Positions 2,833 through 28,397 of a DNA stretch of 64,000 bases are shown here, one piece after another (position 1 is the first letter of the stretch; every line of letters begins with the position of its first letter). Source of the DNA: Candidatus Moraniibacteriota bacterium (lineage in GTDB: Bacteria > Patescibacteriota > Minisyncoccia > Moranbacterales > UBA1568); the NCBI GenBank assembly GCA_016699975.1, contig CP064994.1, forward strand, positions 917,874-981,873. Reading direction: 5' to 3'. The notes beneath the pieces are model-generated. The model did not search any database and was not told the origin of the DNA. It saw only the letters and a program-made list of their open reading frames with translations. The translations under genes were made by a program, and so were the position numbers.

Positions 2833-3323
2833 AGAAACATCGAAAATAAAACTCTGAATGAATCTCTGCCCACCGATACCAAAGTAAAGTCGCCAAAAAA
2901 TTCCGGAAAAGAAACAATTACGATTCTTTTTCAAAAATCGCGAAAGCTGGCGAAGCCTCCCGCCCATACTTGCGTCGAACGTTTCGTTTTCTGTTTGAAA
3001 GACAGCTCCGCCAAGAATGTCCGGCCGGAGTCGCGCTTTGAGCGCGATTTGATTCTCGCCGAAAATACGCTTCCCTTCATCAAGAACCGCTTCGAGCTCC
3101 GTCTCCGAAAGTTTTTTCGAAGAGAGCACTTCCACCGATCGCACGCCCGATCGCTCTTTTTCCAATCGCTCGAGGGCCCGAAGAATAGTGTCCACATCGC
3201 GCCTTCGACCATCCTTCCGAAGCAAAAAAGAAATCGATCAATTCGAATACGGCGCTCCGAAGGACTCGCGTCAACGAGAGCGGCGTATACTCCTTCCGCA
3301 TATTGTCTTGGCGTCATGCGCAT
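2833..3323 (-). CDS. atpH: F0F1 ATP synthase delta (OSCP) subunit, with apparent frame discontinuities
   Basis: N-terminus [32 protein letters not shown] (delta-like ARPYA motif) begins at 3323 in one frame. The delta C-terminal domain (…[25 protein letters not shown]) lies in another frame from about 3225. The switch sits at a T6/A6 run (3222-3228). No stop codon separates it from atpA in that frame. Confidence 0.5.
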
Positions 3324-3649
3324 AGAAAATCATGTATCTCTCGAACTCTTGAACATTCGAGGAAAGGGAGTACTTTTTTCCCTCGCTTCCGACACGGCCA
3401 CGCCTTCAACACTGTGTCGCAACGAGAATGCCCTCACCTTTCACCCTCTCTTTCAAATTCGCTTCGTCTCAATTTTTTTCGAAAAACTCCGACTTCTCTC
3501 ACCCCCTTCTCCTTCTTACAAAACCAATCGCCACCATTCTCTCATCTTTTAAGAATCCGTTCTTCAGGAAGATTCTTGATTCAACAGAAGCACTGAAAAC
3601 TATTGCGTCTGACCTCGTCATTTTTTGTGACTTTCTCTCCCCCTTCCAC

Positions 3650-4180
3650 TCACGAACGTTGAGCGCCTTCTGCGCTTTCTTCTCTTCCTTCCGCTCTCCG
3701 CACTGCTTCACGAACCAACGCTTCATCCTTCTCCGACGCCATTTTTTCACCGAGCACTTTTTCGGTCGCACGAAGGACGAGGTCGGTAAGCTCGCCTTTC
3801 ATGTCGGAGCGAAAACGCTCTCCTTCGGCTTCAATCTTCCGACGCGCCTCATCAAGAATCCACTCGGCTTCGCGGTGCGATTCGGCAACAAGGAGATCTC
3901 CGGTTTTCGCAGCTGATTCTTTCGCGGCACGCAAGAGTTCCGCTGCTTCACGACGCGCGTTCGAAAGCACCTCCTTTTCCTTCGCTTCGAGTTCAGTGAG
4001 CTTCTCGCTTGCTTTCTTTGCGTCGCGAAGTCCCACTTCGATTTTTTTCGAACGATGCTCGAGAAAATCAAGCATCGGACGATAAGCAAACTTCCGCAAA
4101 ACAAAGAGAAGCACCAAAAAGTTCACGATTTGCGCGAGAAGCAACTTCCAATCGATACCGAGTTTCAACAAGACTTCCAT
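3650..4180 (-). CDS. atpF: F0F1 ATP synthase subunit b
   Basis: 176 aa with an N-terminal TM helix (LLAQIVNFLVLLFVLRKFAYRP) and a long charged coiled-coil tail typical of subunit b. Lies between atpE and atpH. Confidence 0.85.
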   Translation of the reverse strand: MEVLLKLGIDWKLLLAQIVNFLVLLFVLRKFAYRPMLDFLEHRSKKIEVGLRDAKKASEKLTELEAKEKEVLSNARREAAELLRAAKESAAKTGDLLVAESHREAEWILDEARRKIEAEGERFRSDMKGELTDLVLRATEKVLGEKMASEKDEALVREAVRRAEGREESAEGAQRS

Positions 4181-4288
4181 ACAAGTGAAAGATTCGAAAA
4201 TTCAAAATCACATCTCTCCTTTCAGTTGATCGGCCCGCACTCTCTGCGAGCACTTCCAAGAAAAGAGAGTATGCGAAAACTACTGGCT

Positions 4289-4561
<273 letters not shown>

Positions 4562-5066
4562 TTACTGATAAATGCAATGGATAATTATGAATCAAAGCAA
4601 TGAAATATAAATTTCATCAATCGTCAAGAACCCTTCTGATTTTTCCATATATGCTGCTGATAATATTCAAGCGCTTCCTCTCTGGAATCAGTCATTATTC
4701 CATTCCTTTCCCTTCGACTCAAAATTTTTCAACAATCTTTTCGCAAACAGCCTCCAAGGCTTCTTGGTTCACTTCCTCTCTTTTATGCTTTTCAAAAGAA
4801 GGGAACTCTTGAGAATTTTCAATACTCATAAAATGAATGTTAAGAAAAAAATCCTTCAAAGTTTTTATCTCTACTTTTAAGTCTTCTTTCACTCTTATTT
4901 CAAAAAATAATTCAGAAACGACGATAAGTATTTTTCGACATGAGAATGTGAGAAGCAAAATCGAGGGGAATAGTGATGAAATTTCGATAAGATATCAAGA
5001 TATAATGTTTCCAAAACCCGAAAAGACTAGAACTCTAACCATAAACGATTTTGAGCTCAATATCCA

Positions 5067-5933: not shown

Positions 5934-6203
5934 TCAATCTTTCCAATTCCACCATTTGAGTTTCTCGGGGTCGTGCCTCGTATGACTTGCAAAGAAAACG
6001 GCTGTACGAAAAACATACAACACGCACCGATCAATACGGGCGCCGCGTATTCGGCACAGTGATTCGTACAAAACTTCCGGATCCTGTCCTCGAAGATCCG
6101 TGGGCTCCCTTATGCCGAGATCACACAGATCCTCTGCAATACTTTTTCCCACTCCCGGAATATCAAGAAGACTGACCTTCTTTATTTTCTTCATACATTT
6201 CAC
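5934..6203 (-). CDS. Small helix-hairpin-helix DNA-binding protein (Cdd1 / pathogenicity-locus-like HhH family)
   Basis: 89 aa: …VSLLDIPGVGKSIAEDLCDLGIREPTDLRGQDPEVLYESLC…RIDRCVLYVF matches the HhH (GIG-type) motif of PF11731-like proteins. Directly upstream of atpB. Confidence 0.55.
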   Translation of the reverse strand: MKCMKKIKKVSLLDIPGVGKSIAEDLCDLGIREPTDLRGQDPEVLYESLCRIRGARIDRCVLYVFRTAVFFASHTRHDPEKLKWWNWKD

Positions 6204-6315
6204 AGGGTTCTTTTTTCAAGAATTACTGTCACGCTCCCACATGGTGAGAGAGAATCCATTATGAAGAGTAACCCTCTCACCTCTCCAACTGATTTCAAGA
6301 GAAACCAACGGAGCC

Positions 6316-6335
6316 GCGTGGTACAATAGTATCAT
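6316..6335 (+). promoter_or_regulatory. Candidate extended -10 promoter (TGgTACAAT) for the LamG gene; leader very short
   Basis: cgTGGTACAATagt lies 16-22 nt upstream of ATG 6344. No Shine-Dalgarno sequence is evident. Confidence 0.25.
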
Positions 6336-6343
6336 TCGCTTCT

Positions 6344-8605
6344 ATGAAGCACTTGTCAAAAACATTTTTTCGCCACCTCGTTCTTTCTCGTTCCTTCCAA
6401 TGGGCGGGGGTTGTTTTTCTCCTGATCATCCTCTCTGGCACTTTTTTGCACTATCGAGGAAACGCTGACACCATGATAAACGCGCCGACCGTGACAAATG
6501 ACACGCTCACCGAAGGCCTCGTTGGCCACTGGACATTCGACGGAAATGAAACCCAAGGCACCGTCGTCGTCGACCGATCGGGAAATGGAAACAACGGAAC
6601 CAGAGTCGGCGCTCCACAAAACACTGAAGGCCGTTTCGGGCAGGCGCTTCGATTCAATGGAACAAGCAATTTCGTTTCGATACCCAATACTCCTTCCCTC
6701 AGACCAACTACTGCCATCACCGTTTCGGCGTGGATCAAAACTCTTCCAAAAAATTTGTACCCGTTTATCGTGAGCAAAAAATACGACACTGACTTCGAAT
6801 CTTATGGACTGAGCGACTTTACAGATGTCGGAACCAATATCGGTTTTTGCATCAAGTGGGGCGCCATGGGAAACGAGTATACTTGCTCCGGGGTCGCAAG
6901 CGAATCATTGGGATTCTGGAACGATAGTTGGGTCCACGTCGTCGGAACGTATGACAAATCTTTCCTCCGGATCTATGTAAACGGGGGAGAAGTGGGAAGC
7001 GGAACACCTGAAACTCGAGATATTTTTTACGGCACTTCTCCCGACAATATTTTTATCGGATCCTTTGACGCTGCCAAGGGATTTTTTTCCGGAAGCATTG
7101 ATGATGTGCGTATCTATAATCGCGCGCTCCCCCCCGAAGACATCTTCACTCTCTCCCAGAGAGGAAAACACCTCATTCAAGCTGCTCCCGAGAATTCCCT
7201 TTCCCAAGGAATCCTCGGCTACTGGAAATTCGATGAAGGAGCAGGTACAGGAAGTGTCTCCGACGCAAGCGGGAACGCCACGGCGCTTACCATGTATTCT
7301 TTCGCGAATACCGATTGGACCACAGGAAAAGTTGGCCCCTTCTCGCTCAATTTTGATGGAGTGTCGAAACGACTTGCTGCAAGTGACCCTCCGATTCTTG
7401 ATTTCGATGCCTCAAAAAGCTTCACCCTCACGGGATGGTTTTATCGAAATAGCCTATCGGCGACCCATACCATTCTCGCCAAACGAAACGGCACTGCAAA
7501 TACCGACGACGGCTATATACTCTCCATAAATGGAGCGACCGACCAACTCATTTTCGAAGCATCCGATAATGCCGATACGGATGAGTATCAGATCGCCAGC
7601 GCTTCTCTTTTCAACGTTCCCGGATGGAATCACTTCGCCATTGTCTGGGACGACGACAGTCCACTCGAAACGACAATGTACACAAATGGCCAAAAAGAAG
7701 CGGCGTCAAAAACCGGAACCCTCTCGAGCATCGGGAACCTCTCAAACGCACTCGCCTTTACTATCGGCGCGGAAAGCGACGGTGGAAATCCTTTCGACGG
7801 GAGCCTCGATGACATTCGCGTTTACGGATACCCACTGTCCACAGAAGAAATCGGGACACTTTTTCGAACTGGCGCTCCCGCGGAACCCGTCGATACCCAG
7901 GTTATCGGTCACTGGACATTCGACGGGCCGGACATTCAAGGAACAAGAGCTCTCGACCGATCAAAAAATTCGCTTCAAGGAACACTCACGAACGGTCCTC
8001 AACCCGCAATCGGAAGACTCGGCCAAGCGCTGCGATTCGACGGCGTCGATGATTTCGTCTCTCTCGGAGACACGCCTCTTTTCACGCTTGATCCGTCGAA
8101 AAATTATACCTGGTCCATGTGGATACGAGGATCCGATTACTCTGGAACTTTCCAAAATATTCTGTGGTCTCAAGTGCAGGATACAAATAACGCGCTCTTG
8201 GTTTCGGCGCGTTCCATTTCGGGACATCCAGATTTTGGATCGGTCACCGATGGACTCTTTGTAACGTGGACCAATGCCGGATCCATTTGTTCTGGCGAAG
8301 CGACAACCGATTCTGTGTTGGAGAAAAACGCGTGGACACACATCGTGCTTCAGTATGAGGGAACCCTCCCTGCGGGTGCGCGCTTTTCCATCTGGGTAAA
8401 TAGTGTCGACCGCTCGAAAAATACGAATGCCTCACACTGCTCCCCGGGGAGCATCAACCCAACAGTCACCGCGCTCGGGAACAACGGGACTCTCCCGAGC
8501 CAGGGATTTGAGGGAAGTCTCGACGATATACGCCTGTACGATCGGCTTCTTACGGCAGAAGAAATACACACTCTTTTCCACTCTGGCACTCTTTCCCGGA
8601 ATTAA
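6344..8605 (+). CDS. Secreted or surface protein with three LamG (concanavalin-A-like lectin/glucanase, Laminin_G_3) domains
   Basis: 753 aa. N-terminal hydrophobic signal (VVFLLIILSGTFL). Three roughly 200-aa units each end in the Laminin_G_3 signature: FSGSIDDVRIYNRALPPEDIFTL, FDGSLDDIRVYGYPLSTEEIGTLF, FEGSLDDIRLYDRLLTAEEIHTLF. Each unit is preceded by GxWxFDG motifs. Confidence 0.8.
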   Translation: MKHLSKTFFRHLVLSRSFQWAGVVFLLIILSGTFLHYRGNADTMINAPTVTNDTLTEGLVGHWTFDGNETQGTVVVDRSGNGNNGTRVGAPQNTEGRFGQALRFNGTSNFVSIPNTPSLRPTTAITVSAWIKTLPKNLYPFIVSKKYDTDFESYGLSDFTDVGTNIGFCIKWGAMGNEYTCSGVASESLGFWNDSWVHVVGTYDKSFLRIYVNGGEVGSGTPETRDIFYGTSPDNIFIGSFDAAKGFFSGSIDDVRIYNRALPPEDIFTLSQRGKHLIQAAPENSLSQGILGYWKFDEGAGTGSVSDASGNATALTMYSFANTDWTTGKVGPFSLNFDGVSKRLAASDPPILDFDASKSFTLTGWFYRNSLSATHTILAKRNGTANTDDGYILSINGATDQLIFEASDNADTDEYQIASASLFNVPGWNHFAIVWDDDSPLETTMYTNGQKEAASKTGTLSSIGNLSNALAFTIGAESDGGNPFDGSLDDIRVYGYPLSTEEIGTLFRTGAPAEPVDTQVIGHWTFDGPDIQGTRALDRSKNSLQGTLTNGPQPAIGRLGQALRFDGVDDFVSLGDTPLFTLDPSKNYTWSMWIRGSDYSGTFQNILWSQVQDTNNALLVSARSISGHPDFGSVTDGLFVTWTNAGSICSGEATTDSVLEKNAWTHIVLQYEGTLPAGARFSIWVNSVDRSKNTNASHCSPGSINPTVTALGNNGTLPSQGFEGSLDDIRLYDRLLTAEEIHTLFHSGTLSRN

Positions 8606-9007
8606 TCCGACTCCCCCTCCTGATTCCTCCTCTCAACCAGAAAGGAGAAGTCCATGAAACTCTTTTAAGAATTTCTGAAGTGAAGGGCAGGGAGAGAAAA
8701 ATGGCGAGTCACGGCATCTCAAACCAGTGCCCCAAGGTTTGAAGTGTGAGAAAAGAAAGTTTGATTCCGGAAGGATTGTTGAGACAAGCCTGAAACTCTC
8801 AAGCAAGCATGCCAGAGAAAAATTTTTCCAAGAAGAAAAATTTTCTCAGTTTCTTTTTCATCTCTTTCAAAAAAAGAGTTTGGCATCACTCTCGTTTCCG
8901 ATGAAAACGAGTGAACGCGATCAGAAAAGAAGCGCTCGGTGTGAAAAAAGAGAAAGAGAAGCGACAGAGGTCATGAGCGCGTCTTCAAACTCGTCCACGT
9001 GAACAGC

Positions 9008-9045
9008 AAAAGAAAAATCTCCGACCTCGAAGTCGGAGATTTCCA
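9008..9045 (-). terminator. Intrinsic terminator downstream of the 1432-aa surface-protein gene
   Basis: On the minus strand: ggaaaTCTCCGACttcgagGTCGGAGAtttttctttt (8-bp perfect stem plus T-run). Confidence 0.55.
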
Positions 9046-9138
9046 AAACCAAAGTGCCCGTCGAAAAATTTCTGATGGAATTTGTGCGTCGCTCTTCCCG
9101 AATTTCCGAAGAAGAGCATGCTTCAGAAACGAAATACG

Positions 9139-12100
9139 CTACCGCTCTTCCACCAGCACCCAATCGAAGGGAATTTCTTCAGAAGTTTCGGTACGCACTT
9201 CTACTGTAAAGCTTTTTCCCTCATCAACTTTGGTAACCGCAAGCGGCGCGCTCGTCGCTTTTTTTGGCGTCACAAAAATTCTCGCTCCATTCGAAACCGC
9301 TTTCGTGGAAACAACCACTTTCTTTCCGTCCCGAGCGGCAACCTCCGGATCGTCCATGGCATCTCCCGTCCGATCATCCTTCCCGTCAGGAATGTCGTTT
9401 CCGGATTCATCGGTTTTCCCTTTGACATCAATGGCTTTCGCAAACAAAGTTGCCGCACCAATCGATGGCGCCTCGTCATCACTCACGGTAACCACAAGCG
9501 ATTCCGCTCGCAGTTCCTTCACACGCAGAACGCCTTTCGAGAGATCGAGATTTCCATCGGCGTCTTTCACGAGGACACTCCCCAAAGAAAGCGTATTGTA
9601 AAAATCAAGGAGAGTCTCATTCGAACTCTGCAGAAGTGACACGGCCGATTCAAGCGTTTCCAACTTTTTGGTGACTCCCGACATATCGGCAGTGTGTTGT
9701 TCGAATGTCGCAAGCCGCATCTTCGTTTCGGCATCCGATTGAGCAACGAGCGAGAAGCGCTCCTCGACCGACGTCTCCAGATCGGCAAGTGTGGTCGCGT
9801 GCCCGTCGGTCGAGAGCGTCACGCTTTCGAGCGTCGAGGCCAGATCCGACACACGACGATCCTCTTCTTGAACAGCCTTCACGAGAACCGGGATAAATTC
9901 CGCCTTCGAAATTCCCAGGTAACCGTTCTCGCCGGTCGAAATAACATTGGGATACACCTCTTGCACTTCTTGCGCAATAAAACCGGTGAGACGCGGACCG
10001 TCCGCATGGCTTACGCGATTAAAATCAACAACGCGTAAACGATTGATCACACCGAGTCCCTCAGTCAGGGTATTCTCGATATTCGTTTTGGTGCGAATAT
10101 CGGACGGATCGGTAATCGCAAATGTTCCCGCCGTATTCGCAATGTATCCGATTTGGGTGCCGTCACCATCGAGCGCATTTAAATAGTACGTCGTTCCACT
10201 TCCGTCATCCGCTCCGGCCTGCACTACCATGCCGTATCGATTGGCGTTGTTGCCATCGTTTCCAACACGCATTGCGTACCCGCTTGCTCGGTCGTCGCTC
10301 ACATCGAGACGAGAGCTCGGCGTCGTCGTTCCAATACCAACACCAAGCGAACCGACGCCGCCCGACCCATCAGCCACTCCATACACTGTAAGCACGGGAT
10401 TGGTGTCGAGTTGCGCCGAGTAACTGAGAACGGTATTCGAAGGCACGGCGGGTGTCACGGCCATATCAATCCATGAAAGGATACCCCCGTCTTCGGGAAA
10501 GTACTGCGCGCCCAGACGAGCGTCCGCGATTGTTGTGGTCCCCGTCGAAGTGATCGCAAAATCAGCCGAGGATCCAAGTGTATTTCCGGCATCAATCTTA
10601 AACGTATCCGCATCACTCGTATCGACACCGAGAGAAAATTTCACGCCCAGTGTCGTCGCGCTCGTGCGAAACTGAAGGAGAGGATCATGCGTCGTCGTCG
10701 CCGAAGTAATGGTAAGCACTTCATCGTTTGCGGAGGCTCCGTAGAGTTCAAGCGGCGATACAGGACTCGCGGTACCAATTCCGACCGCCCCTGCCCCATT
10801 TACCACAAAGGGGGTCGTGTCGCCAATCACATCATCGATGCGAAAAGCAAGATTGTTCGTGCCTGTTGCCGCATGCTCGATAAGGAGCGAGGTGTTCGCG
10901 TTTTGTACTCCGGTATTTTTGAGTGCAAGAAGAGAGCCTGTATTGGCGGCAGCGCTTCCCGAAAGCGAGAGGGTTGCAAGACTTCCTGAAAGTCCCGTCG
11001 AAGAAGAGAGGATTGAGAGTCCCGAGCCACTCGTGAGTCCATTCACGCTCATGGCAAGTGCGGTTTCCGTATCGATTACGTTGGCAGTAATATTGACGGC
11101 GTTCGCTGCATTCGACGCTTGAACAATATCAAGCGCCGAAACTGGTGCAGTCGCATTGAGCTGATTCAGCCCGAACAAAAATCCGGAATCCGTTCCCCCA
11201 GAAGCAGGATTTTCAAACACTACAGAATCGTCGAGCGAGGAAAGTCGGAGCGTCGCATTCGAACCGTCAGCATCAAAATCATAGGCTCTTTGGAGCGGTG
11301 TTTCATATCCGGCACACAGACTTCCTGATGTACAAATTGTCCCGCTCTCATTGGGGAGCGTCCAGGTGCGCGAAGCAGTCAGATTCGCACGAGTAAGTTG
11401 TCCACGTCCATCTGGATCATACCAATAGAGCGAGGTTCCCTGTGTCGAAGTCGATGTAAACGCCTCTCCTGCCGAAACATCGCCGATCGCGGTTATGTCT
11501 CCAATTCCTCCCCCGCCTGACGAGACCCATGAGAATCCGCCCGTCCCCGAATTAAATGTGAGAATCTGCCCATCAAGCGGAGCGCCTGATGCCCCAAGAT
11601 CAATACCAAGCACGCTTCCATTTTCAATTTCCGCGGAATCAATACTCACGCCAAGGGAGGATTCGAGATTAATAGTTCCCACGCCATTTGCGATCGTGAC
11701 GCTCCCCGCCAAAGAGGTAAGGGTTCCGAGAGTAGGCGCGCCGGAAGCTATCCCTATAAGAAGCTGCCCGTTTCCCAGAATGCCAAGCGACTGGATCGCA
11801 CCTGCTGCGTTCCCATAGAGTATGCCACCCGACGGAAACGAAGCATTTCCTGTTCCACCATGCGAAACTGAAAGTGCAGGACTATCAACTGACCAAACTC
11901 CGGATGACAGAAATGGTACGCCGGTGAATGAGGAGGTATCGATTCCTGTTCCACCATGCGAAACTGAAAGTGCGGGACTATCAACTGACCAAACTCCGGA
12001 TGACAGAAATGGTACGCCAGTGAATGAGGAGGTATCGATTCCTGTTCCACCATGCGAAACTGAAAGTGCGGGACTATCAACTGACCAAACTCCGGATGAC

Positions 12101-13437
12101 AGAAATGGTACGCCAGTGAATGAGGAGGTATCGATTCCTGTTCCACCATGCGAAACTGAAAGTGCGGGACTATCAACTGACCAAACTCCGGATGACAGAA
12201 ATGGTACGCCAGTGAATGAGGAGGTATCGATTCCTGTTCCACCATGCGAAACTGAAAGTGCAGGACTATCAACTGACCAAACTCCGGATGACAGAAATGG
12301 TACGCCAGTGAATGAGGAGGTATCGATTCCTGTTCCACCTCGAACCGCGGAAAGATAATTTTCTCCGGAAAGTGTGGTGCCGTTTATCCAATACGAAACC
12401 TGGCCCGGCGATCCGGAACCGTTCACCATTCCCGCAAATGCCGAAGTGAAAGAAGAGAACGTCGTCCCATCGTCCGAGAATTGCCACTCACCAATTCCTC
12501 CGTCATAGCGAAGCGCGGGGGCATTCGAAGCACTTGAGATTGACAAGCGAAACTGATTCGAGTTTATTGCAATCCCGGAACCAATGGTAAAAACCGTTGA
12601 GTTCGTCGCCGTATCGGTATTCTGCGTGTGTCCATTTCCTGAAATTGGTGCCACACGATCAAGGAGAGACTGAAAGTCATCGGAAAGATTCGAGAGATCG
12701 CCCGAGAGTGTATCGACATTCTTCGAGAGTGCAGAAACCTCTTTGACCGACGACGTAAAGTCTTTGTTGTCAGCAAGAAGAAGCGTTTTCCCTTTGGTAC
12801 CGGTTGGGAGTTGCTCGATCCCAAGTTTCCCTGCGACGCCATACGTCACAATATCTCCCGCATTGTTCCCGATCGCTCTCCCCCTTAAGAACTGCGAATT
12901 CACCGCATTCGGAAACTTTCCCAATTTTTTCCGCGGCACCATTTCCGCATCCGATTCCACGCGAATGCCCAGAAAATAGTTTCCTCCTTCGAAAGTAAAA
13001 TTATTCGGAAGTGGTGTGCTCTTTCCCAAAAAAGTCTCGAGCACACCGTTTTTTACTTCTACAATCTGTGTTTCTTCCCAGACCCGACTCGCACGATCGG
13101 CATCGGAAGGGTATGGATCCACTTGTGTGCGGTCGGATCGGTAGAGACTAAAGCGCACCGAGTAGGAAGCGTTCGGAACCATCTCTCCGTCTCCCTGGAG
13201 AAGCACCGCCGAAACTGAAATACTGCCGGTATCCGAAGAAGATGCACTTCCTCCAGAAACTTCTTGCGCAAAAACAGCCCGGGGAGCAAGTCCGCAGGCA
13301 AGAAATCCTGTCAGTACGACTACCGAAAGAAGCGAAATGAAAAAATATTTCCTTTCTTTGTTTTGAAAACAATGCATCGAGATTGACACGAAAAAGAAGT
13401 ACCAAATCGAACTTCTCCTCGTCTCCGTCGAGAGCAT
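9139..13437 (-). CDS. Giant (1432 aa) surface protein with 5x32-aa tandem repeats and a C-proximal peptidase S74 / tail-spike intramolecular-chaperone auto-processing domain
   Basis: N-terminal signal/TM (LLSVVVLTGFLACGLAPRAVFAQE). Long Gly/Ser/Thr-rich beta-rich body with GTGIDTSSFTGVPFLSSGVWSVDSPALSVSHG x5. Near the C-terminus, DPSDIRTKTNIENT…LRVVDFNRV…GFIAQEVQEVYPNVIS…AEFIPVLVKAVQE matches the S74 chaperone-of-endosialidase domain. It is followed by about 250 aa of coiled-coil and charged tail. Confidence 0.8.
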   Translation of the reverse strand: MLSTETRRSSIWYFFFVSISMHCFQNKERKYFFISLLSVVVLTGFLACGLAPRAVFAQEVSGGSASSSDTGSISVSAVLLQGDGEMVPNASYSVRFSLYRSDRTQVDPYPSDADRASRVWEETQIVEVKNGVLETFLGKSTPLPNNFTFEGGNYFLGIRVESDAEMVPRKKLGKFPNAVNSQFLRGRAIGNNAGDIVTYGVAGKLGIEQLPTGTKGKTLLLADNKDFTSSVKEVSALSKNVDTLSGDLSNLSDDFQSLLDRVAPISGNGHTQNTDTATNSTVFTIGSGIAINSNQFRLSISSASNAPALRYDGGIGEWQFSDDGTTFSSFTSAFAGMVNGSGSPGQVSYWINGTTLSGENYLSAVRGGTGIDTSSFTGVPFLSSGVWSVDSPALSVSHGGTGIDTSSFTGVPFLSSGVWSVDSPALSVSHGGTGIDTSSFTGVPFLSSGVWSVDSPALSVSHGGTGIDTSSFTGVPFLSSGVWSVDSPALSVSHGGTGIDTSSFTGVPFLSSGVWSVDSPALSVSHGGTGNASFPSGGILYGNAAGAIQSLGILGNGQLLIGIASGAPTLGTLTSLAGSVTIANGVGTINLESSLGVSIDSAEIENGSVLGIDLGASGAPLDGQILTFNSGTGGFSWVSSGGGGIGDITAIGDVSAGEAFTSTSTQGTSLYWYDPDGRGQLTRANLTASRTWTLPNESGTICTSGSLCAGYETPLQRAYDFDADGSNATLRLSSLDDSVVFENPASGGTDSGFLFGLNQLNATAPVSALDIVQASNAANAVNITANVIDTETALAMSVNGLTSGSGLSILSSSTGLSGSLATLSLSGSAAANTGSLLALKNTGVQNANTSLLIEHAATGTNNLAFRIDDVIGDTTPFVVNGAGAVGIGTASPVSPLELYGASANDEVLTITSATTTHDPLLQFRTSATTLGVKFSLGVDTSDADTFKIDAGNTLGSSADFAITSTGTTTIADARLGAQYFPEDGGILSWIDMAVTPAVPSNTVLSYSAQLDTNPVLTVYGVADGSGGVGSLGVGIGTTTPSSRLDVSDDRASGYAMRVGNDGNNANRYGMVVQAGADDGSGTTYYLNALDGDGTQIGYIANTAGTFAITDPSDIRTKTNIENTLTEGLGVINRLRVVDFNRVSHADGPRLTGFIAQEVQEVYPNVISTGENGYLGISKAEFIPVLVKAVQEEDRRVSDLASTLESVTLSTDGHATTLADLETSVEERFSLVAQSDAETKMRLATFEQHTADMSGVTKKLETLESAVSLLQSSNETLLDFYNTLSLGSVLVKDADGNLDLSKGVLRVKELRAESLVVTVSDDEAPSIGAATLFAKAIDVKGKTDESGNDIPDGKDDRTGDAMDDPEVAARDGKKVVVSTKAVSNGARIFVTPKKATSAPLAVTKVDEGKSFTVEVRTETSEEIPFDWVLVEER
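11855..12334. repeat. Five near-identical tandem copies of a 96-bp (32-codon) repeat inside the giant surface-protein gene
   Basis: The unit ccaccatgcgaaactgaaagtgc[a/g]ggactatcaactgaccaaactccggatgacagaaatggtacgcc[a/g]gtgaatgaggaggtatcgattcctgtt recurs at 11855, 11951, 12047, 12143 and 12239. Copies differ at only one or two positions. The overlapping shadow ORFs 11754..12338 and 11822..12358 are artefacts of it. Confidence 0.9.
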
Positions 13438-13537
13438 CCGAATAAAGAAACGCGAGGGCGTTCCTTCCTCATAGTACCTCCAAAATCACAAAAAAACAAT
13501 GTGTTTCTTTTTGAATTTCGTTCTCTAGAGATCCTGA

Positions 13538-20989: not shown

Positions 20990-21544
20990 AATTCTCCTTC
21001 CCCTGTATTCCCTCTCAAACTCTTCTCGTGAGATTTAACCAATCCTCGGAAAAACACAGGAATCTCAAAAATTTTTCGGACATTTTTCTACCAAGAAAGA
21101 AAAAGAAAGAAAATCGCTCGAAAACTTTTTCGGCAAGAAACTGAGAACTTCAAAAAGATTCTTCGCAAGAATGGATGGACTCGAAGAATGGCTTAAGAAA
21201 ATGTCGACGGTCAGAATATTTTGGGCGAGAACAAAAGAGAAAAGAGAGAAAATGATAACACCCCGATATTACGGAGAATATTCGGGGCGAGAAAAGACAG
21301 AAACGTTTGAGCCATAGGTTCCCCAGGTTGACACCCGAGGAGTTCTCGCTGGATTAATGAATGAGGAGAGTACGAGGCGAGCTCGAAAAAAAGTTCCCAC
21401 AACTACGACCTCCTTGATTACTGCATTCAGGAATCAATACTGGAACAACGAAAGACTACTTCAAGAACGTACCAGAAATCAATACCTCAAGATGCATTCT
21501 TGGCGCAAGCCATGAAAGAGGAGTTTCTTATTCGAAGCGCCTCT

Positions 21545-22909
21545 TTAGGATTTCTTCATCTTTCTGCGAATAAAGGCGGGGATTTCAAGATCCTCCTCTT
21601 CCGAGCTCGCCTCTTTCGTTTCACCTCGAAGCGAGAGAGGTCGAGGCGCAATCTTTTCCTCGATAATCATTTTCGTTTCAAGTTTTCGAGTGGGAAACGT
21701 GATTTCTTCTCGCATCGCTCCCGCATCCTGGTTCGTGAGAGATGGGGACAATTCTTGGTGAGCCGGTGGCTGAAACGAAGAGGTTTCGGAGCGCTCCAAG
21801 TATTCTTCGCGCGGCGAAACGGGAGAAGTGTCCCGCGAAGTCACATTCCGCACTTCCCGGACATCGCGGTCATCGACCGTTTTCTCGGGAAGTGTGCCTG
21901 GGCGCGAGGAAGCAAGTCTCGTCAACTTTCGGAATGGATCTTCTACTATTCGACCCCCATCAAATCCCGTCGCCACCACGGTAATTTGCACTTCTCCTTT
22001 TCTTACTTGATCATCCGACACCGCCCCAAAGATCACTTTGGCATTGGGATCGATATTCTCGGTAATAATATTTGCCGCCTCGTTGATCTCGAGCATCGTG
22101 ACATCGCTCGAACCCGAAATATTAAAGAGCACCCCACGAGCACCATCGATCGAGAGATCGAGAAGCGGACTATTGATAGCAGCCTTTGCCGCTTCGACAG
22201 CACGGTTCTCTCCCGAGGCAACCCCAATCCCCATAAGCGCACTCCCACTGTCTTCCATAATGGCCCGCACATCGGCGAAGTCGACATTCACGATTCCTGG
22301 CTTGGTGATAAGATCGGAAATTCCTTGTACGCCCTGGCGAAGCACATCGTCGACGATGCGAAACGCATTAATGAGTGTGGTTTTTCGGTCAATGATGGAA
22401 AGAAGCTTGTCATTTGGGATCGTGATGAGAGAATCCACTCGTTCCTGCATATTCTTCAGACCTTCCTCGGCAATCGCGCGTCGCTGCGCACCCTCAAAGG
22501 CAAACGGTTTCGTAACAACGCCAATCGTCAGTGCGCCAATTTCTTTGGCAGTTTCCGCTACGATAGGAGCAGCGCCCGTTCCGGTTCCACCCCCCAACCC
22601 GCACGTCACAAAAACCATGTCAGCCCCTTTCAAAACTTCCTGAATCTCATCGCGGTTTTCTTCGGAAGCCTGACGCCCAATCTCCGGATTCATTCCCGCG
22701 CCGAGTCCTTTCGTGAGATTCTTGCCAATATGAATTTTCTCACTGGCGCGAGAATGATGGAGCGCTTGAGCATCGGTATTGACGACGACAAACTCCACTC
22801 CTTTAATCTTCGCTTCGATCATGCGCGAGATAGCATTCCCTCCTGATCCTCCCACTCCTACCACTTTTATCTTCGCAAATGTTTCTATTGCCGGTTTTAT
22901 TTCAGCCAT
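21545..22909 (-). CDS. ftsZ: Cell division GTPase FtsZ
   Basis: …[18 protein letters not shown]…[21 protein letters not shown]… (tubulin signature GGGTGTG)…NVDFADV… and the C-terminal conserved peptide [11 protein letters not shown]. Confidence 0.95.
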
Positions 22910-23263
22910 AACAGAAGAGAGATAACGCGATACTTTAGATACTGTATGAGAACTCGCGAAAGCAGTACCAAGAAAAACCGGCCCGAACGCCTCACGAGAA
23001 CGGATCTCTGAAAGAGCGAGCGGAAACCGGTTTGTATTTTCTTTTCTGAGATTTGATACCTTCGAATTGCGCGAGCTGCATCAAAACTTTTTTCAGTTTA
23101 CCAGAATTCACGCGGAACACCAAATAAACCGTTTAACTGCCTTTTTGATTCCTCTTTTTCCCGGTACCAAATTTTTTCGAAGGATCGATTTCTCCAATCA
23201 AGAGAGCAAAAAAATCACTCAGAGAAAGATCGCTTCTTTGTCCAATCCTTTTCCCTGATCGAT

Positions 23264-24496
23264 CTATGATCCGTATTTTTGAAGCGTCCAATAATTCTGA
23301 TCGCAACTGCTGTCTCGACATCCGCACTTCCATTCATTTCCCTCAAAACGACAGACGAAGGCAAGCACAAATCCCGAAGTTCCGCCGGAAATAGGCGGAA
23401 GACCCTCGGAGAAAGCCTCTCCAGAATACCATCCTGGATTATTTACAGCCTCTTCTCCCGAAAAAGAAATTGTCTGCCAGCTCCCGTTCGAGAAAACAAA
23501 TCCCGTGTTGTAAACCGACGTATTGAGAGTGGAATTTCCCGCGACCGCTCTCTTTCCTTCAGGACGGCACTCTACGCGAAGAAGCGGCTCCTGATTTTCC
23601 GAAAAAGGATTAAGTGGCGCCCCATATCCTTCGGGAACATCTGCAAAACTCGTAATAAGCGAACAATCCGTCGACGCTCCGCCCAGTCGCTTCGCAATAC
23701 ATGGGTCTGATCGCACACCTTCGGAAGGAGTGCATGTCCAAGAGCTCGAACTCCCTCCCAACGGGAAAGCTGGAGAAGCAGGTTGCGGAGATCCTGTTGC
23801 ACAGAGATCGCCAAGAAAAGCATTTTCCGTTTCCGAATAGATGCGAGCGGCGCTGCCACACACTCCCATGGGATCCGGCGACCCAAGAACGGGAGCCGAA
23901 CAAGAAACATTTTTTCCACTTTCTCCGAGACAAAGCCAAACCCATTCGTTTCCAGACGCGGAGACCGGACTTGCCGTCCCTCTCGCACACAGATTCGAGG
24001 AAGGGCGAGAAGCAATCGAAGTTCCATCCGCGGGTCCGCACGCTGGCAAAACAACAAGAGACGGAACTCGTTCACTCGCCATACGAACCCCTACCGTTTC
24101 CTCTTCCCCTTCAAACTGGCCAGTCACCTCGATCAGCGCAACCTTGGAAGTCGCGTCGCTACAAGAAAGGCGTCTTTCCGAAGCGTCTCGAAAGATAGCA
24201 ATAAAGCGTCCTGAAGAATTTTTTCCTCGAATTTCTTTGTCGACACAAGATCCTCCGGAAGCCGAGGTAAGTGAGCGGATCGTTCCTCGTTTCCGACGAA
24301 CTTCGGCAGAGAGCGCATCAAGCGCAATATGCGCGGACTTGAGAGCTGTCTTCTCTCCGATCGACTGGGCAGAAACAGAAAAAGGAGGCCAAATGAAAGA
24401 AAGAAGCACCGCAACCACACCAACCGAGTAAAAACGAAAACGCTTCAAGAGAAAAGGCATAAGTGAAGGCAACAAAAGAAAGAGAAAAATTGCCAA
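23264..24496 (-). CDS. Secreted cysteine-rich protein (410 aa), short paralog sharing a C-terminal domain with ORF 24809..27001
   Basis: Signal peptide (VGVVAVLLSFIWPPFSVSAQS). Motif CGSAARIYSE…LCATGSP…WTCTP…C. The C-terminal about 110 aa (…PEGYGAPLNP…VAGNSTLNTSVYNTGFV…GFVLAFVCRFEGNEWKCGCRDSSCDQNYWTLQKYGS) align with the C-terminus of the 730-aa neighbour. Confidence 0.7.
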   Translation of the reverse strand: MAIFLFLLLPSLMPFLLKRFRFYSVGVVAVLLSFIWPPFSVSAQSIGEKTALKSAHIALDALSAEVRRKRGTIRSLTSASGGSCVDKEIRGKNSSGRFIAIFRDASERRLSCSDATSKVALIEVTGQFEGEEETVGVRMASERVPSLVVLPACGPADGTSIASRPSSNLCARGTASPVSASGNEWVWLCLGESGKNVSCSAPVLGSPDPMGVCGSAARIYSETENAFLGDLCATGSPQPASPAFPLGGSSSSWTCTPSEGVRSDPCIAKRLGGASTDCSLITSFADVPEGYGAPLNPFSENQEPLLRVECRPEGKRAVAGNSTLNTSVYNTGFVFSNGSWQTISFSGEEAVNNPGWYSGEAFSEGLPPISGGTSGFVLAFVCRFEGNEWKCGCRDSSCDQNYWTLQKYGS

Positions 24497-24501
24497 ATAA
24501 A

Positions 24502-24735
24502 CTAGCGCGACGGAAGGAGGGGAGCAGGAGGCACGTCATTCGAAGGAGTTGCTTCCCCTTCCATGAAAGGAGGGTTCGTTGGAAGAGGCGGAAGCGGAGG
24601 AGGAGTTACAGGCATTTGAGATGTTCGCGATTTCGAAGAAAAGCTCGCAAGAAGAAAGGCAATCACCACCACAATCGCGATTCCCAGCACAACAAGTACC
24701 GCTTTGCGGCGCGCCGTCAGTTCAGTAATATTCAT
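24502..24735 (-). CDS. Small single-pass membrane protein with a proline-rich tail (77 aa)
   Basis: MNITELTARRKAVLVVLGIAIVVVIAFLLASFS… (TM) followed by …PVTPPPLPPLPTNPPF…PPAPLLPSR. Occupies exactly the gap between the two Cys-rich paralogs. Confidence 0.4.
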   Translation of the reverse strand: MNITELTARRKAVLVVLGIAIVVVIAFLLASFSSKSRTSQMPVTPPPLPPLPTNPPFMEGEATPSNDVPPAPLLPSR

Positions 24736-24808
24736 ATGTTTTATTTTTACGAACTAAATCAATTCACTCAAAAAAATCATCAAAAAATATCCTGTATACT
24801 GTTTCGCA

Positions 24809-27001
24809 CTACTTTTTTCCGTACGCCTGAATAGTCCAATAATTTTGGGAGCAGTCGCGATCTCGACATCCACACTTCCATTCGCTTCCCTCATATTGAC
24901 AGATAAAGGCAAGAACATAGTTTTGCCCGGATGAAGGTGCGGCGGGAAGTTCTGCAACTGCCGAACCACGGAACCAGCCAGCATTTCCCGAATCCGCTCT
25001 TCCCGAAAAGTCTATCTTGCTCCATTCGCCGTTTTGCGAAACAAAACCAGTTTTGTACACAAAGGTTGCTTGCGAACCGGCAACTGCCATTCCCCCTTGA
25101 TCAGAGCAACGGACGGTCAGCGTTTCTTCATTCTGAGAGGAAAGCATATTGAAAGGACTCCCATATCCTTCCGGAATTGAGCTCTGCAAAGAAGTGTATC
25201 GAGCGCAGGAAGAAGGATTTTCTCCATTCGAATTCGGGAAAGTAGGATTTTGTCCTTCAACCGTTCCACGAGTAGCAGTGCAACTTTCCGAATCTTTGCC
25301 TCCCGTAATACCGGCACAGCGCCACTCTGAAGCAGCATTTATGCTTGGGAATGAAGGATTGACGGGGTCCGGCAATCCCGTGTAACAGAACGACCCCGAA
25401 AAAGTCGTCTCTCCATCAGAATAGTTCCTCGCGGCATTCCCGCAGGATCCACTCACTTTAATGACTTCTCCTTCGGCAATAGGGTTTGAAGGGCCAGTAT
25501 TTCCAGAAACATCCCACGCCATACAGGTATTCGTGCCACATGGCCACGTCCAGTGAGCACATCGTCCTCCTGAACCAGTGAGACCTGAACAATCAGTGCT
25601 ATGCGTCATGCCAATTCCCGTAGTAATCGTTTGTCCCGAACAGAGGTTTTGAGTAGGTTGGGAGGTAAAGTCCTTCCCATGAGAGGTTCCACACTGAGAT
25701 CCAGGAGAAGGTGGGTCAGTGGGAACACAGCACTTCTTTCCCATGGTGCAGTCCGCTTTGACAAACTGCTGAGCTCCGTATCGACATGTCGCGGTTTCAT
25801 TGATACATTGTCCGCCCACTTGGGAGCAGCTTGTTACCTGAGAAGGATTACAACCGATTCCGGAACAACCTCCCTCTGGGGGAGAGGGGTTCGTTGGGGA
25901 ATTCGTACCATTTTTCACACACGTATCCGACTGAGCCGTAAAACCTTCTTTACAAGCGAAACACTTTCCTTGTCCCCCACACGTCCAATCCCATCCAGCA
26001 AATTCTCCATTTACGAATAAAGCATACGTATTTGTCCCCGAAGGTTCGGTTCCCGGAATTCCTGAAACTGCCCCTGAAGTGCAGCTGTATCGTTGGTCAG
26101 GACCGTTTTTCGGAAATGTCTTTCCATTATTGGAACCACAGACACCACTTGTTGGCGTAGGATTTCCGGAAGCGTTCCGTATGCACACATAGTTCCCACT
26201 CGTTACAGAATTGCACGTATATCCTGAAAGGGGTCGCATGGGTCCTCTTCCCGACTCGCATCCAGAGCCCCATTGACCATCCATTTGAAGCATTCCGTAG
26301 CGCCAACTGGCATTACAACCTCCCGTGATGCCGTCAGAAGAACCAACTTTAGAACACACGTAGTAAGCGTTATTTTCATAGGTAGAGACTTTTCCGCATT
26401 GGTAGCCCGATGGAGGCGTCGGATACCCCTCTTTTCCACCACCACACCCCACTCCCCATTCGTCATAGGTCCGGCGGACGGCGCTCGTCGTAGATTCGAT
26501 GCGGCATCCACCTGCTATATCTCCCGACGAGTTCGATTTGGAACAGATATAATATTGCGTCAGACCATCAGTAGTATCGGTTCCCACTATTCCGCATGCA
26601 TATCCTGCTGCCGCGCGAACATCGGGTCCGCTCCCTTCAAACCCCTTTCCCCAACTAGAAGAAAGCTGCATGATGCGATATTTGGATGTCTTTGTATAGC
26701 CTCCGGTCACACCGCTTGCGGCATCGGATCGCACACACCAATAATTTGCATTCTTAACGTTTTCTGTTTGAGGAACAGAACTCACTCGACCACAAACATA
26801 CCCCGAAGGAGGCTTGGGATAAGCATCATTGCCACAGCCAACCCCCCAATTCCCGACATTTTTGGGATTTCTCAACATCTGAATGGAGCACCCTCCCTCC
26901 ACATTCGCAAGCGCATGATCTGAAACCAAGAAAATTCCGATCGAGATCGCAAGCAAAGACCCCAGTAAAAACAAACGGACAGAGTTTCTTTGTGTATTCA
27001 T
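24809..27001 (-). CDS. Secreted cysteine-rich repeat protein (730 aa), long paralog
   Basis: Signal peptide. Three N-terminal repeats: WGVGCGNDAYPKPPSGYVCG…, WGVGCGGGKEGYPTPPSGYQCG…, WGSGCESGRGPMRPLSGYTCN…. Three CGxxxG…LC/SC…W.C.G…C.A modules. Cys-knot-like stretch CSGIGCNPSQVTSCSQVGGQCINETATCRYG. C-terminal domain …VLAFICQYEGSEWKCGCRDRDCSQNYWTIQAYGKK is shared with the 410-aa paralog. Confidence 0.75.
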   Translation of the reverse strand: MNTQRNSVRLFLLGSLLAISIGIFLVSDHALANVEGGCSIQMLRNPKNVGNWGVGCGNDAYPKPPSGYVCGRVSSVPQTENVKNANYWCVRSDAASGVTGGYTKTSKYRIMQLSSSWGKGFEGSGPDVRAAAGYACGIVGTDTTDGLTQYYICSKSNSSGDIAGGCRIESTTSAVRRTYDEWGVGCGGGKEGYPTPPSGYQCGKVSTYENNAYYVCSKVGSSDGITGGCNASWRYGMLQMDGQWGSGCESGRGPMRPLSGYTCNSVTSGNYVCIRNASGNPTPTSGVCGSNNGKTFPKNGPDQRYSCTSGAVSGIPGTEPSGTNTYALFVNGEFAGWDWTCGGQGKCFACKEGFTAQSDTCVKNGTNSPTNPSPPEGGCSGIGCNPSQVTSCSQVGGQCINETATCRYGAQQFVKADCTMGKKCCVPTDPPSPGSQCGTSHGKDFTSQPTQNLCSGQTITTGIGMTHSTDCSGLTGSGGRCAHWTWPCGTNTCMAWDVSGNTGPSNPIAEGEVIKVSGSCGNAARNYSDGETTFSGSFCYTGLPDPVNPSFPSINAASEWRCAGITGGKDSESCTATRGTVEGQNPTFPNSNGENPSSCARYTSLQSSIPEGYGSPFNMLSSQNEETLTVRCSDQGGMAVAGSQATFVYKTGFVSQNGEWSKIDFSGRADSGNAGWFRGSAVAELPAAPSSGQNYVLAFICQYEGSEWKCGCRDRDCSQNYWTIQAYGKK

Positions 27002-27149
27002 AGGCGTACTTCCTCAAGAGGAACATCGTTACGATTTTTGAACGAGTAAATAATCACGATATAAATTTCAGATATCTTTTTTTAGTATATCACAAAGAGA
27101 ACATTTTTCGAGAAAAATTTTTCCTCACGCACTCTGATTCATTCTTCCC

Positions 27150-28397
27150 TTACGGCAAAAATTTTCCGAAGAGGCGCTTTGCTCGATCGAGGGTTTGTGA
27201 AATTCCTGTGGTCGCAAACCAAGAAGCACCCGACCGCTCATTTCCTCTGTTTGCTTCAGCCCACAAAACGAGACCAAGAACAGTTGCGAATTCCGGATCA
27301 TCCACCTGATCCAGAACTCCTCCCAACGGTTTCGGATAGCCAATATGAGCGGGGAGACGAAGCGTTTCCTTGGCAAGCTCAACGACGCCCGGAAGACGAG
27401 CGCCTCCGCCTGAGAGGACCACGCCACCCGGAAGAAGGCCCGAACGACCGATTTGTTTCAGCTCCGCATCGACAAATTGGAAGAGTTCTTCGAGGCGCGC
27501 TTCGATAATCTCGGCAATATGCCGACGCGACACTTCTCCTTCTTCTTTGCTGCTGATTGCAGCGAGATCGATATCTTCTTTCTTATCAATATCACGCGAC
27601 AGAGCGCTTCCGAAACGAACCTTCACTGCTTCCGCAACATCAATCGACGTTCTCAGTCCGATCGCGATATCATTCGTGATATGCCCCGCTCCAATCGGCA
27701 AAATTTTCACATGGAGGAGATCTCCTTCCTCAAAAACAGCAAGCGACGTCGTGTCAGCGCCGATATCGACAAGCACCGCTCCGAGCTCCCGCTCTCTCGA
27801 TCCAAGGACCGCTTCCGAAGCGGCAAGAGGCGAAACGACAAACTGTTCGAGTCCGATGCCCGCTTGTTCGAGCGCTCGGGAAATATTTTTCGTATGTTGC
27901 GCGGAATCACCAATAAGAAGCGCCGAGACTTCGAGCCGAACGCCATTCATGCCGAGGGGGTCCTTGATATTTTTTTCGTCATCAAGGCGGTAGTGTTTCG
28001 GAATAATGTGGAGGATCTCCTGATTCGGCGAAAGAGGTGCGGTGTGCCGCGCTTGCTCGAGGACTCGATTGATATCGTCATCGAGCACTTCCCCGTCGGC
28101 CTTCCCAACCGCAATCACGCCCGTCGCTTCCCGAAAAAAAACTTCGTGACCGCCAAGCGCAACAGAGACTCGCTCAATTTGAGCTCCCGCCATACTTTCA
28201 GCCCGCGAGATCGATTCCACTATGGAAGACACAGCGGCTTCGATATCGACGATAGAGCCGCGCCTCACGCCCAACGTGGGAACTACTCCCACCCCGACGA
28301 TACGCGGCGCTTCCCGCTCCTTTCCGGGAGAAACGACAACGGTTCGAATGGACCCCGATCCGATATCGAGACCGGTAATGAAATTTCCACGCTTCAT
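27150..28397 (-). CDS. ftsA: Cell division protein FtsA (actin-like ATPase)
   Basis: MKRGNFITGLDIGSGSIRTVVV… (phosphate-1 motif)…VLVDIGADTTSLAVF…ILPIGAGHITNDIA… Stop overlaps the dgkA start region. Confidence 0.9.
   Translation of the reverse strand: MKRGNFITGLDIGSGSIRTVVVSPGKEREAPRIVGVGVVPTLGVRRGSIVDIEAAVSSIVESISRAESMAGAQIERVSVALGGHEVFFREATGVIAVGKADGEVLDDDINRVLEQARHTAPLSPNQEILHIIPKHYRLDDEKNIKDPLGMNGVRLEVSALLIGDSAQHTKNISRALEQAGIGLEQFVVSPLAASEAVLGSRERELGAVLVDIGADTTSLAVFEEGDLLHVKILPIGAGHITNDIAIGLRTSIDVAEAVKVRFGSALSRDIDKKEDIDLAAISSKEEGEVSRRHIAEIIEARLEELFQFVDAELKQIGRSGLLPGGVVLSGGGARLPGVVELAKETLRLPAHIGYPKPLGGVLDQVDDPEFATVLGLVLWAEANRGNERSGASWFATTGISQTLDRAKRLFGKFLP

Follow-up and report, generated by a model that had tools for sequence, protein, structure and literature searches.

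A cysteine-rich, putatively surface-displayed protein cassette at a split ftsA–ftsZ junction in a Moraniibacteriota genome

In the bacterial division and cell wall (dcw) cluster the junction between ftsA and ftsZ is normally invariant. Modular surface proteins of the Gram-positive type (SLH proteins, proteins with cell-wall-binding repeats and exoenzymes with carbohydrate-binding modules, CBMs) combine a signal peptide, a variable head and a repeat stalk with a constant terminal module that recurs on many paralogs. Bacteria of the candidate phyla radiation (CPR, or Patescibacteria) are regarded as living in attachment to other cells, and most of their surface proteins lack annotation. A stretch of 64,000 nucleotides (the window) from a metagenome-assembled genome (MAG) of the CPR lineage Candidatus Moraniibacteriota (GenBank assembly GCA_016699975.1, contig CP064994.1, positions 917,874 to 981,873) carries a cassette of three genes between ftsA and ftsZ, consisting of a long and a short paralog, both rich in cysteine, with the gene for a small proline-rich membrane protein (the mini-protein) between them (Table 1). 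We read this as a lineage-specific cell-surface display or adhesin cassette of Moraniibacteriota, not a division module, with a probability of about 60%; the broader claim, that the products are surface or secreted binding proteins unrelated to division, is held with distinctly greater confidence. A search of the literature on the conserved motif of these proteins, on Cys-rich proteins of Moranbacteria and on the organization of CPR division clusters found nothing specific to this arrangement.

The window resembles the described dcw cluster in that its flanking genes are a bona fide ftsA and ftsZ in canonical order and orientation, and the backbone yqeY–dagK–ftsA–ftsZ–comEC–MBL is kept in relatives. 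It differs in that the adjacency is broken, by 4.2 kb in the window and by 2.4 kb and >10 kb of other genes in two relatives (L006 and L005), and the inserted genes have no division-related homology and are located elsewhere in one relative. The six-frame list of open reading frames (ORFs) gives ftsA, the 730-amino-acid (aa), 77-aa and 410-aa genes and ftsZ as five co-directional minus-strand frames, with 4,240 bp from the ftsA stop to the ftsZ start. This arrangement is not an assembly artefact, since assemblies made independently from four runs or samples contain all or part of it (SRR11674037, SRR15021097, ERZ15185987 and SRR32934939). A preliminary description of this DNA, made without database searches, had reported three structural features, and each is borne out: the co-directional ftsA and ftsZ 4.2 kb apart, by the ORF list and the TIGR01174 and TIGR00065 matches; the pair of signal-peptide, Cys-rich paralogs, by N-terminal hydrophobic segments, Cys counts and BLASTP paralogy; and the 77-aa single-pass membrane protein with a PPPLPPLP stretch between them, by hydropathy, composition and conserved homologs.

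Comparison with other genomes separates the cassette from the division genes. A scan for FtsA in 185,579 species genomes, with tblastn mapping of the loci, yielded four relatives and two distant bacteria. The two genes are contiguous (about 280 bp apart) in two of the relatives (L007 at 72% FtsA identity and L008 at 55%) and in both distant genomes. The assembly of L007, GCA_964515255.1, with a spacer of 278 bp on contig CAZETL010000057.1, also holds homologs of the cassette proteins (P0004 and P0005), which lie on contig CAZETL010000002.1 (L011) in the order 449 aa, 69-aa mini-protein, 644 aa, 69-aa mini-protein and 399 aa, flanked by pyruvate:ferredoxin oxidoreductase (POR) genes on one side and tgt/proS on the other. 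Overall, the pair of a long-type gene and a mini-protein gene occurs in at least five different genomic contexts, and no ftsA or ftsZ was found beside the other such pairs (L001, L012, L013 and L014) or at 34 further loci that encode the C-terminal domain (CTD) of the large proteins. The preliminary description had proposed an undescribed surface or secretion module, or an effector, in the division cluster, and had singled out the same genes at an unrelated locus, with ftsA–ftsZ contiguous, as the observation that would count against it. GCA_964515255.1 shows exactly this arrangement. The surface module is still the best reading of the cassette, while the functional tie to the division cluster is not supported by synteny, and the position between ftsA and ftsZ appears to be a lineage-specific accident and not the mark of a new division function.

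The two remaining relatives have other genes at this position. In L006 (73% FtsA identity) a different insert of 2.4 kb encodes two unknown proteins and an S26 signal peptidase (Pfam). In L005 (78% FtsA identity) ftsA is followed by >10 kb of other genes with no ftsZ within reach, and Pfam identifies among the products a LamG protein, an FN3 protein ending in the CTD, an MFS transporter, a phosphoesterase and a protein with five FN3 domains. The proteins encoded in both of these inserts, too, include ones of the secreted type. The contents of the slot are wholly different between the window, L005 and L006. In a neighbour-joining tree of FtsA these three form one clade, with the contiguous L007 and L008 outside it, which suggests that the spacer opened once in an ancestor and that its content then turned over. 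On another metagenome contig (L040) a 938-aa CTD protein (1427..4240) is convergent to a yqeY homolog (4546..4995, 67% identity to the YqeY of the window), which suggests a build-up of surface genes around yqeY–dagK–ftsA in a further relative as well. Other large putative surface genes lie among core genes (atpA, gyrB, ftsK, rpoB and rpoC) in the same 64 kb (9139..13437 on the minus strand, 6344..8605 on the plus strand and 53586..57518 on the minus strand), and their products comprise a 1,432-aa protein with a Peptidase_S74 endosialidase-chaperone (tail-fibre-like) domain, LamG×3 and Big_13/FN3. Searches with hidden Markov models (HMMs) found neither the CTD nor the mini-protein on these three. 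Because the window holds three more such genes, surface genes wedged between housekeeping genes look normal for this genome.

The CTD of the large proteins is widely distributed. The two large proteins are paralogous over about 320 C-terminal residues (BLASTP 37% identity, E 1e-52), and each ends in this domain of about 134 residues, which is defined by six conserved Cys, conserved Trp residues and the motif WKCGCRD··C···W··Q. Both window proteins show these features (HMM E 1e-61 for the long paralog and 7e-64 for the short, whose copy lies at 23270..23668). Three disulfides are predicted for the domain. AlphaFold2 models the domain as an all-β structure, a β-sandwich, with a predicted local distance difference test score (pLDDT) of 92.9 and a predicted template modelling score of 0.88. 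Extreme rarity had been the impression from a word-indexed search, which returned two matches for the long paralog (itself and one relative) and eight for the short, and this was overturned when the CTD profile was scored against every one of 1.84 billion cluster representatives, giving 1,327 homologs at E ≤ 1e-3 and 350 at E ≤ 1e-30. The domain is always found either at the very end of the protein or immediately behind the N-terminal signal region. Among 78 carriers its Pfam partners are fn3 (17), Ig-like (11), Beta_helix (8) and LamG (5), along with polysaccharide and pectate lyases, glycoside hydrolases of families GH16 and GH26, esterases, chondroitinase B, CBM6, CBM35 and CBM60, malectin, M23 and MopE repeats. 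Organism names were attached to 2 of 20 sampled clusters, both of them Moraniibacteriota "fibronectin type III domain-containing proteins". Taken together, the CTD is an uncurated yet widespread terminal accessory module of secreted proteins. Since it is terminal and joined to lyases, glycoside hydrolases, LamG, FN3 and CBM exoproteins, we read it as a putative targeting or binding "foot" that would bind glycans or a surface. On metagenome contigs, distant CTD genes also form head-to-tail arrays of large paralogs (600–1,460 aa) without mini-proteins, five in L015, three in L017 and two each in L016, L024 and L043.

The likeness to modular surface proteins of the Gram-positive type extends to the signal peptide, the variable head and repeat stalk, the constant terminal module on many paralogs, its attachment to lyases, hydrolases, LamG and FN3, and the tandem arrays of CTD paralogs. 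The window proteins differ from that type in having no SLH, LysM, cell-wall-binding, LPXTG or known CBM signature, in that their terminal module is an uncurated six-Cys β-sandwich, and in the proline-rich membrane mini-protein that is co-inherited within a narrow subfamily. Pfam and NCBIfam searches found no LPXTG/sortase, SLH, LysM or lipoprotein signals in the window proteins, and a C-terminal hydrophobic segment is absent. The nearest solved folds for the CTD include CBM56 (PDB 5t7a, 6a6c and 7quz; 11–13% identity) and a lyase accessory domain, with similarity below significance, and Ig and FN3 domains score as well as CBM56. That β-1,3-glucan-binding module has no sequence relationship to the CTD and lacks its six conserved Cys and the WKCGCRD motif. 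For the three cassette proteins there was no match above noise in Pfam, NCBIfam, PADLOC, PHROGs or PDB sequences. The earlier statement that the proteins belong to no nameable family therefore stands as far as curated families go, but their novelty had been overstated, given the 1,327 representatives with a CTD and the presence of the four-Cys repeats on pilin-like and SLH-type proteins.

Upstream of the CTD the two paralogs are built from cysteine-rich units. The long paralog, whose ATG is preceded by a GAGGA Shine-Dalgarno-like motif 8–14 nt upstream, begins with a signal peptide (residues ~1–32), followed by four degenerate units of the form GGC…WG·GC…SGY·CG (residues ~36–276, recognized by eye), three four-Cys repeats of the form CG··G…C··G…W·W·C…C (residues ~287–578) and the β-sandwich domain. 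The short paralog has a signal peptide, an N-terminal domain (N-domain, "GKNSSG…"), two four-Cys repeats and the CTD. The preliminary description gave its length as 410 aa; this frame exists, but the start is more likely ATG 24460, giving 398 aa, than TTG 24496, because the NCBI and metagenome gene callers use the ATG, and with this start the signal peptide has the canonical n/h/c form and ends VSA|Q. The full-length model of the short paralog is confident over its repeats and CTD (pLDDT 85–94). Its N-domain is common to P0004 and to a 280-aa protein of the L006 insert (39% identity, E 4e-10). The latter (11762..12604) is a mosaic of this N-domain, a phage-tail-fibre-like 'NVAAPTSSSDAATKAYVD' motif identified by eye and a Cys unit, whose likeness to the N-terminal units of the 730-aa protein is weak (pairwise E 1e-5 without composition correction) and is not relied on.

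More distant protein matches (P0007–P0010) have in common with the window proteins only the four-Cys repeats of ~45–60 residues (CG··G…P…LC··G…W·W·C·G··GG…C·A), and differ in having neither the CTD nor a mini-protein partner. Two of them, a prepilin-type protein (P0008, with the PF07963 N_methyl motif) and a protein with a near-threshold SLH match (P0009), place the repeats on type IV pilin-like and other surface proteins of CPR bacteria, where the same ~45-aa pattern recurs (CGsanG…P…LC…G…W·W·C·G·nGG…C·A). The window proteins differ from these in having Sec-type signal peptides, and Pfam finds the prepilin cleavage and methylation motif PF07963 in none of the three. CPR bacteria are presumed to interact with their hosts through pili and surface proteins, and CPR genomes are enriched in an MdbA-like oxidoreductase and VKOR (bioRxiv 10.1101/335083). 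Each large protein has one N-terminal hydrophobic segment and an even number of Cys; because of these two features and the enrichment of CPR genomes in MdbA-like oxidoreductase and VKOR, both proteins are probably exported via Sec and disulfide-bonded.

The mini-protein has one strong hydrophobic segment (Kyte-Doolittle maximum 3.34), is 18% Pro and contains PPPLPPLP, and its homologs carry the signature RRK, a transmembrane helix and then LP·(T/S)PPPLP··P·NPP…PP·P·LP. It follows the long-type gene in all seven cases (the window, L001, L011 twice, L012, L013 and L014; HMM E 5e-27 to 7e-35), after spacers of about 30–75 bp, and the roughly 45 distant CTD genes of 34 metagenome loci are never followed by one. 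At L011 a perfect direct repeat of 860 bp (6192..7051 and 8423..9282) extends from the last Cys repeat through the CTD and the spacer over nearly all of the mini-protein gene, and its two copies are joined to two unrelated N-terminal gene halves. This indicates a recent tandem duplication or gene conversion, with some residual chance of an artefact of the MAG assembly. Because that repeat spans both and the mini-protein tracks long-type genes, the CTD and the mini-protein appear to be inherited and duplicated as one unit. By the positive-inside rule, and with no conserved AXA site, the mini-protein is predicted to be a type II membrane protein, an N-in/C-out uncleaved signal-anchor with an outward polyproline tail of about 45 residues. 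Its inheritance and duplication together with the CTD lead us to suggest, tentatively, that it is a membrane tether or docking partner of CTD proteins. Within the searched libraries and literature, the pairing of such a domain with a proline-rich bitopic mini-protein is undescribed.

The regulatory signals around the cassette follow a pattern seen across the window. The extended −10 motif TGNTAYAMT occurs 11 times against 1.55 expected, an approximately sevenfold enrichment that none of 100 shuffles reaches, and at least 9 of the 11 sites fall in an intergenic spacer with a co-oriented ORF immediately downstream, in many cases no more than 12–20 nt from its start codon. Because of this placement the motif appears to be the promoter signature of this organism, and should be usable as a promoter predictor for this Moraniibacteriota genome; the distances suggest very short leaders or leaderless mRNAs. 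One site is placed between ftsA and the 730-aa gene, 58 nt from the stop of the former and 83 nt from the ATG of the latter, and each of the four relatives (L005–L008) has the same element 44–85 nt downstream of its ftsA stop. In the contiguous L007 and L008 it is the single such element, 223–237 nt upstream of ftsZ, so that the post-ftsA element is probably the ftsZ promoter. The window has a second element before ftsZ, and a second copy, TGCTACACT, is found 243 nt before ftsZ in L006. The two window elements form a 22-nt imperfect direct repeat, D2 (73% identity; one copy 27075..27096), that brackets the cassette.

The leader of ftsZ holds a long hairpin followed by a T-run, and both are conserved in L007 (2209..2284, z −5.2) and L006 (~13455..13530). 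The hairpin lies within the ~200-nt leader, after the distal extended −10 and, in L006 and L007, before a proximal promoter-like site, TTGAC(A/T)-N16-TGATAAAGT. In this clade it may serve ftsZ as an attenuator or regulatory leader; Rfam has no match anywhere in the window, hairpin included. A reading of the hairpin as the ancestral ftsA terminator, with the cassette before it, was dropped, since the extended −10 lies upstream of the hairpin in all genomes. In our reading the cassette would sit downstream of the original ftsZ promoter, using it or a copy of it, and ftsZ would keep a promoter-like element and its leader. The earlier suggestion of co-transcription with the division genes is weakened by the promoter-like elements of the cassette and of ftsZ, although transcription may also run on from ftsA into the cassette and from there into ftsZ.

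A working model for a surface cassette can be drawn from these observations. Both large proteins would be exported by Sec and then fully oxidised to disulfide-bonded modular proteins, with a variable N-terminal "head", four-Cys repeats of ~45–60 residues as a stalk and the constant β-sandwich CTD as a targeting "foot". The outward polyproline tail of the mini-protein would tether or dock the otherwise anchorless proteins at the cell surface, where they could bind ligands on host cells or polymers and mediate attachment. A single insertion in the ancestor of a small clade would have placed the cassette between ftsA and ftsZ, where it would be transcribed from its own copy of the promoter. Several points weigh against this model. 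Export, disulfides, surface location, the ligand and contact between mini-protein and CTD are all deduced from sequence. The short-type paralogs (P0003 and P0004) are the last gene of their cassettes and carry the CTD with no mini-protein of their own, and many distant CTD proteins also lack one, so that the function of the CTD does not in general depend on a mini-protein. The scenario of one insertion is based on a neighbour-joining tree of one gene and five taxa without support values, and the second promoter-like element of the window is only a relaxed match (TAAACT). Lastly, the N-terminal ~130 residues of the short-paralog model (a helix and β-strands) fall below pLDDT 50, the alignment being too shallow.

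A role in division was weighed most directly, as the cassette runs in the same direction as ftsA and ftsZ and fits closely between them, the spacer between ftsA and the 730-aa gene has no predicted terminator-like site, and three related genomes all have extra genes after ftsA. Bitopic divisome proteins with proline-rich linkers are also known, ZipA being one. The mini-protein could then be a ZipA- or FtsN-like divisome linker, with the Cys-rich proteins remodelling or marking the septal envelope and all three co-expressed with ftsA and ftsZ. Several lines of evidence speak against such a module: a homologous cassette sits at an unrelated locus in a genome where ftsA and ftsZ are contiguous, the fts genes are absent near the other long and mini-protein pairs and the 34 further CTD loci, the contents of the slot differ completely between the window, L005 and L006, and the mini-protein tracks the Cys-rich gene, not the fts genes. 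In addition, the cassette appears to have its own promoter, and searches for divisome families (ZipA, FtsN, FtsQ/L/B and SepF) in Pfam and NCBIfam at E ≤ 1 returned only noise. A septal module is thus highly improbable. Equally little credence is given to the cassette as a recently acquired mobile or phage island of 3.7 kb (a prophage remnant, or transposon or integrative cargo such as receptor-binding proteins) that integrated here by chance. Its location does differ between relatives, D2 brackets it, and the L006 insert protein has a motif that resembles a tail fibre by eye. However, the similarity of the bracketing repeats is expected from function, as they coincide with promoter elements, and the repeat scan for insertion scars recovered only that repeat and the paralogous 3' ends. 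The ORF list, repeat scan and tRNA scan show no integrase or transposase, tRNA or terminal inverted repeats at the cassette; its composition is native (GC 0.50–0.52, codon usage, tetranucleotides at the 89th percentile); and no phage or viral homologs were found in 50,697 phage records, IMG/VR contigs, PHROGs or a BFVD fold search. Where the preliminary description allowed for an outcome of only a mobile insertion, this holds in the loose sense of a relocated native cassette, while the hallmarks of a mobile element were sought and not found.

The pairing of each long-type gene with a small transmembrane gene downstream also recalls bacteriocin and immunity pairs, in which case the Cys-rich proteins would be exported effectors, as toxins or bacteriocins, and the mini-protein their cognate immunity protein. 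The pattern is compatible with this, if not specific to it, and so is the joint duplication of the effector end and the mini-protein. In the 730-aa protein the Cys-dense residues ~368–426 (…CSGIGCNPSQVTSCSQVGGQCINETATCRYGAQQFVKADCTMGKKCC…, window ~25724..25900, minus strand) give sub-threshold matches to β-defensin folds, namely crotamine (Pfam E 0.069) and a tick carboxypeptidase inhibitor (PDB 1zlh, E 0.08). Against it, Pfam, NCBIfam and PADLOC detect no toxin or defence family, and the conserved unit paired with the mini-protein is a β-sandwich found elsewhere on lyases, hydrolases, FN3 and CBM proteins, a distribution usual for binding or anchoring modules and not for toxic domains. Polymorphic toxins vary at the C-terminal tip, the reverse of the constant tip and variable N-termini seen here; a single-pass protein with a long extracellular polyproline tail would be atypical for immunity; and the short paralog has the CTD but no mini-protein. 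We regard a toxin system as improbable. Another view is that the proteins are soluble or substrate-directed glycan binders, the CTD being a true CBM for the capture or scavenging of external polysaccharide and the mini-protein having an unrelated role, such as help in export or folding. The company of polysaccharide lyases, GH16, GH26, esterases and CBMs, and nearest solved folds that include CBM56 and a lyase accessory domain, speak for this view. Yet the window proteins have no catalytic domain, the CTD is present even on carriers with a CBM6, CBM35 or CBM60 of their own, which points to a distinct role for it, and the strict co-inheritance of CTD and mini-protein is left unexplained, while the fold similarity is below significance; this view, too, is unlikely. 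A surface display or adhesin cassette accommodates these observations best. A more specific version, in which the CTD and the polyproline mini-protein form an undescribed, non-covalent mode of CPR surface anchoring, with a disulfide-locked β-sandwich docking on a membrane-embedded polyproline-II stalk, is doubtful.

The understanding of cell division is unchanged by this locus, and its value lies in annotation and in hypotheses for CPR surface biology. It points to a large uncurated family of terminal β-sandwich domains on many secreted glycan-active and surface proteins. Should the CTD and the mini-protein indeed form a non-covalent anchoring system, the WKCGCRD family (>1,300 clusters, in neither Pfam nor NCBIfam) would be a new class of cell-surface targeting or carbohydrate-binding modules that display enzymes and adhesins in ultra-small bacteria. 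The strictly co-inherited proline-rich membrane mini-protein could be a simple tethering device. The locus may also be a concrete case of an ftsA–ftsZ junction opened without loss of the ftsZ promoter and leader.

Table 1. Positions, in window coordinates, of the cassette, its flanking genes and the associated putative regulatory elements.
Feature	Position	Strand	Basis or remark
ftsA, 415 aa, upstream flank of cassette	27150..28397	-	TIGR01174 E 2.3e-110; Pfam FtsA + SHS2_FTSA
Cassette promoter-like site (TCGAAA, 16 nt, TG-a-TATACT)	27084..27111 (extended −10 27092..27084)	-	motif enrichment
Long paralog, 730 aa, 44 Cys	24809..27001	-	ORF list, paralogy, hydropathy
CTD of long paralog, ending WKCGCRD··C··YW·IQ	24815..25210	-	HMM E 1e-61; AlphaFold2 model
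Mini-protein, 77 aa (RRK, transmembrane helix, Pro-rich tail)	24502..24735	-	ORF list, hydropathy, homologs
Short paralog, 398 aa from ATG 24460 (410 aa if TTG 24496), 16 Cys	23264..24460	-	NCBI IPL87_04860, hypothetical protein
Second, relaxed extended −10-like element (TGgTAAACT), presumed ftsZ promoter	23095..23103	-	194 nt upstream of ftsZ
Long hairpin then TTTTTCTT, ftsZ leader, terminator- or attenuator-like	22970..23033	-	ΔG −26.4 kcal/mol, z −4.4 vs shuffles
ftsZ, 454 aa, downstream flank	21545..22909	-	TIGR00065 E 1.4e-128; Pfam Tubulin + FtsZ_C
TGNTAYAMT sites	6319, 14393, 17377, 27084, 32676, 45777, 45916, 53316, 58015, 59169, 59241		window

Two further reading frames of the window should be noted. 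A 448-aa open frame runs antisense to ftsZ (21500..22846, plus strand); long antisense ORFs occur region-wide, and they are not taken as evidence for genes. On the minus strand, a 633-aa ORF (1324..3225) joins the C-terminal half of an OSCP/delta domain and a complete ATP synthase alpha in one frame, and may represent an atpH–atpA fusion or simply an over-extended ORF.

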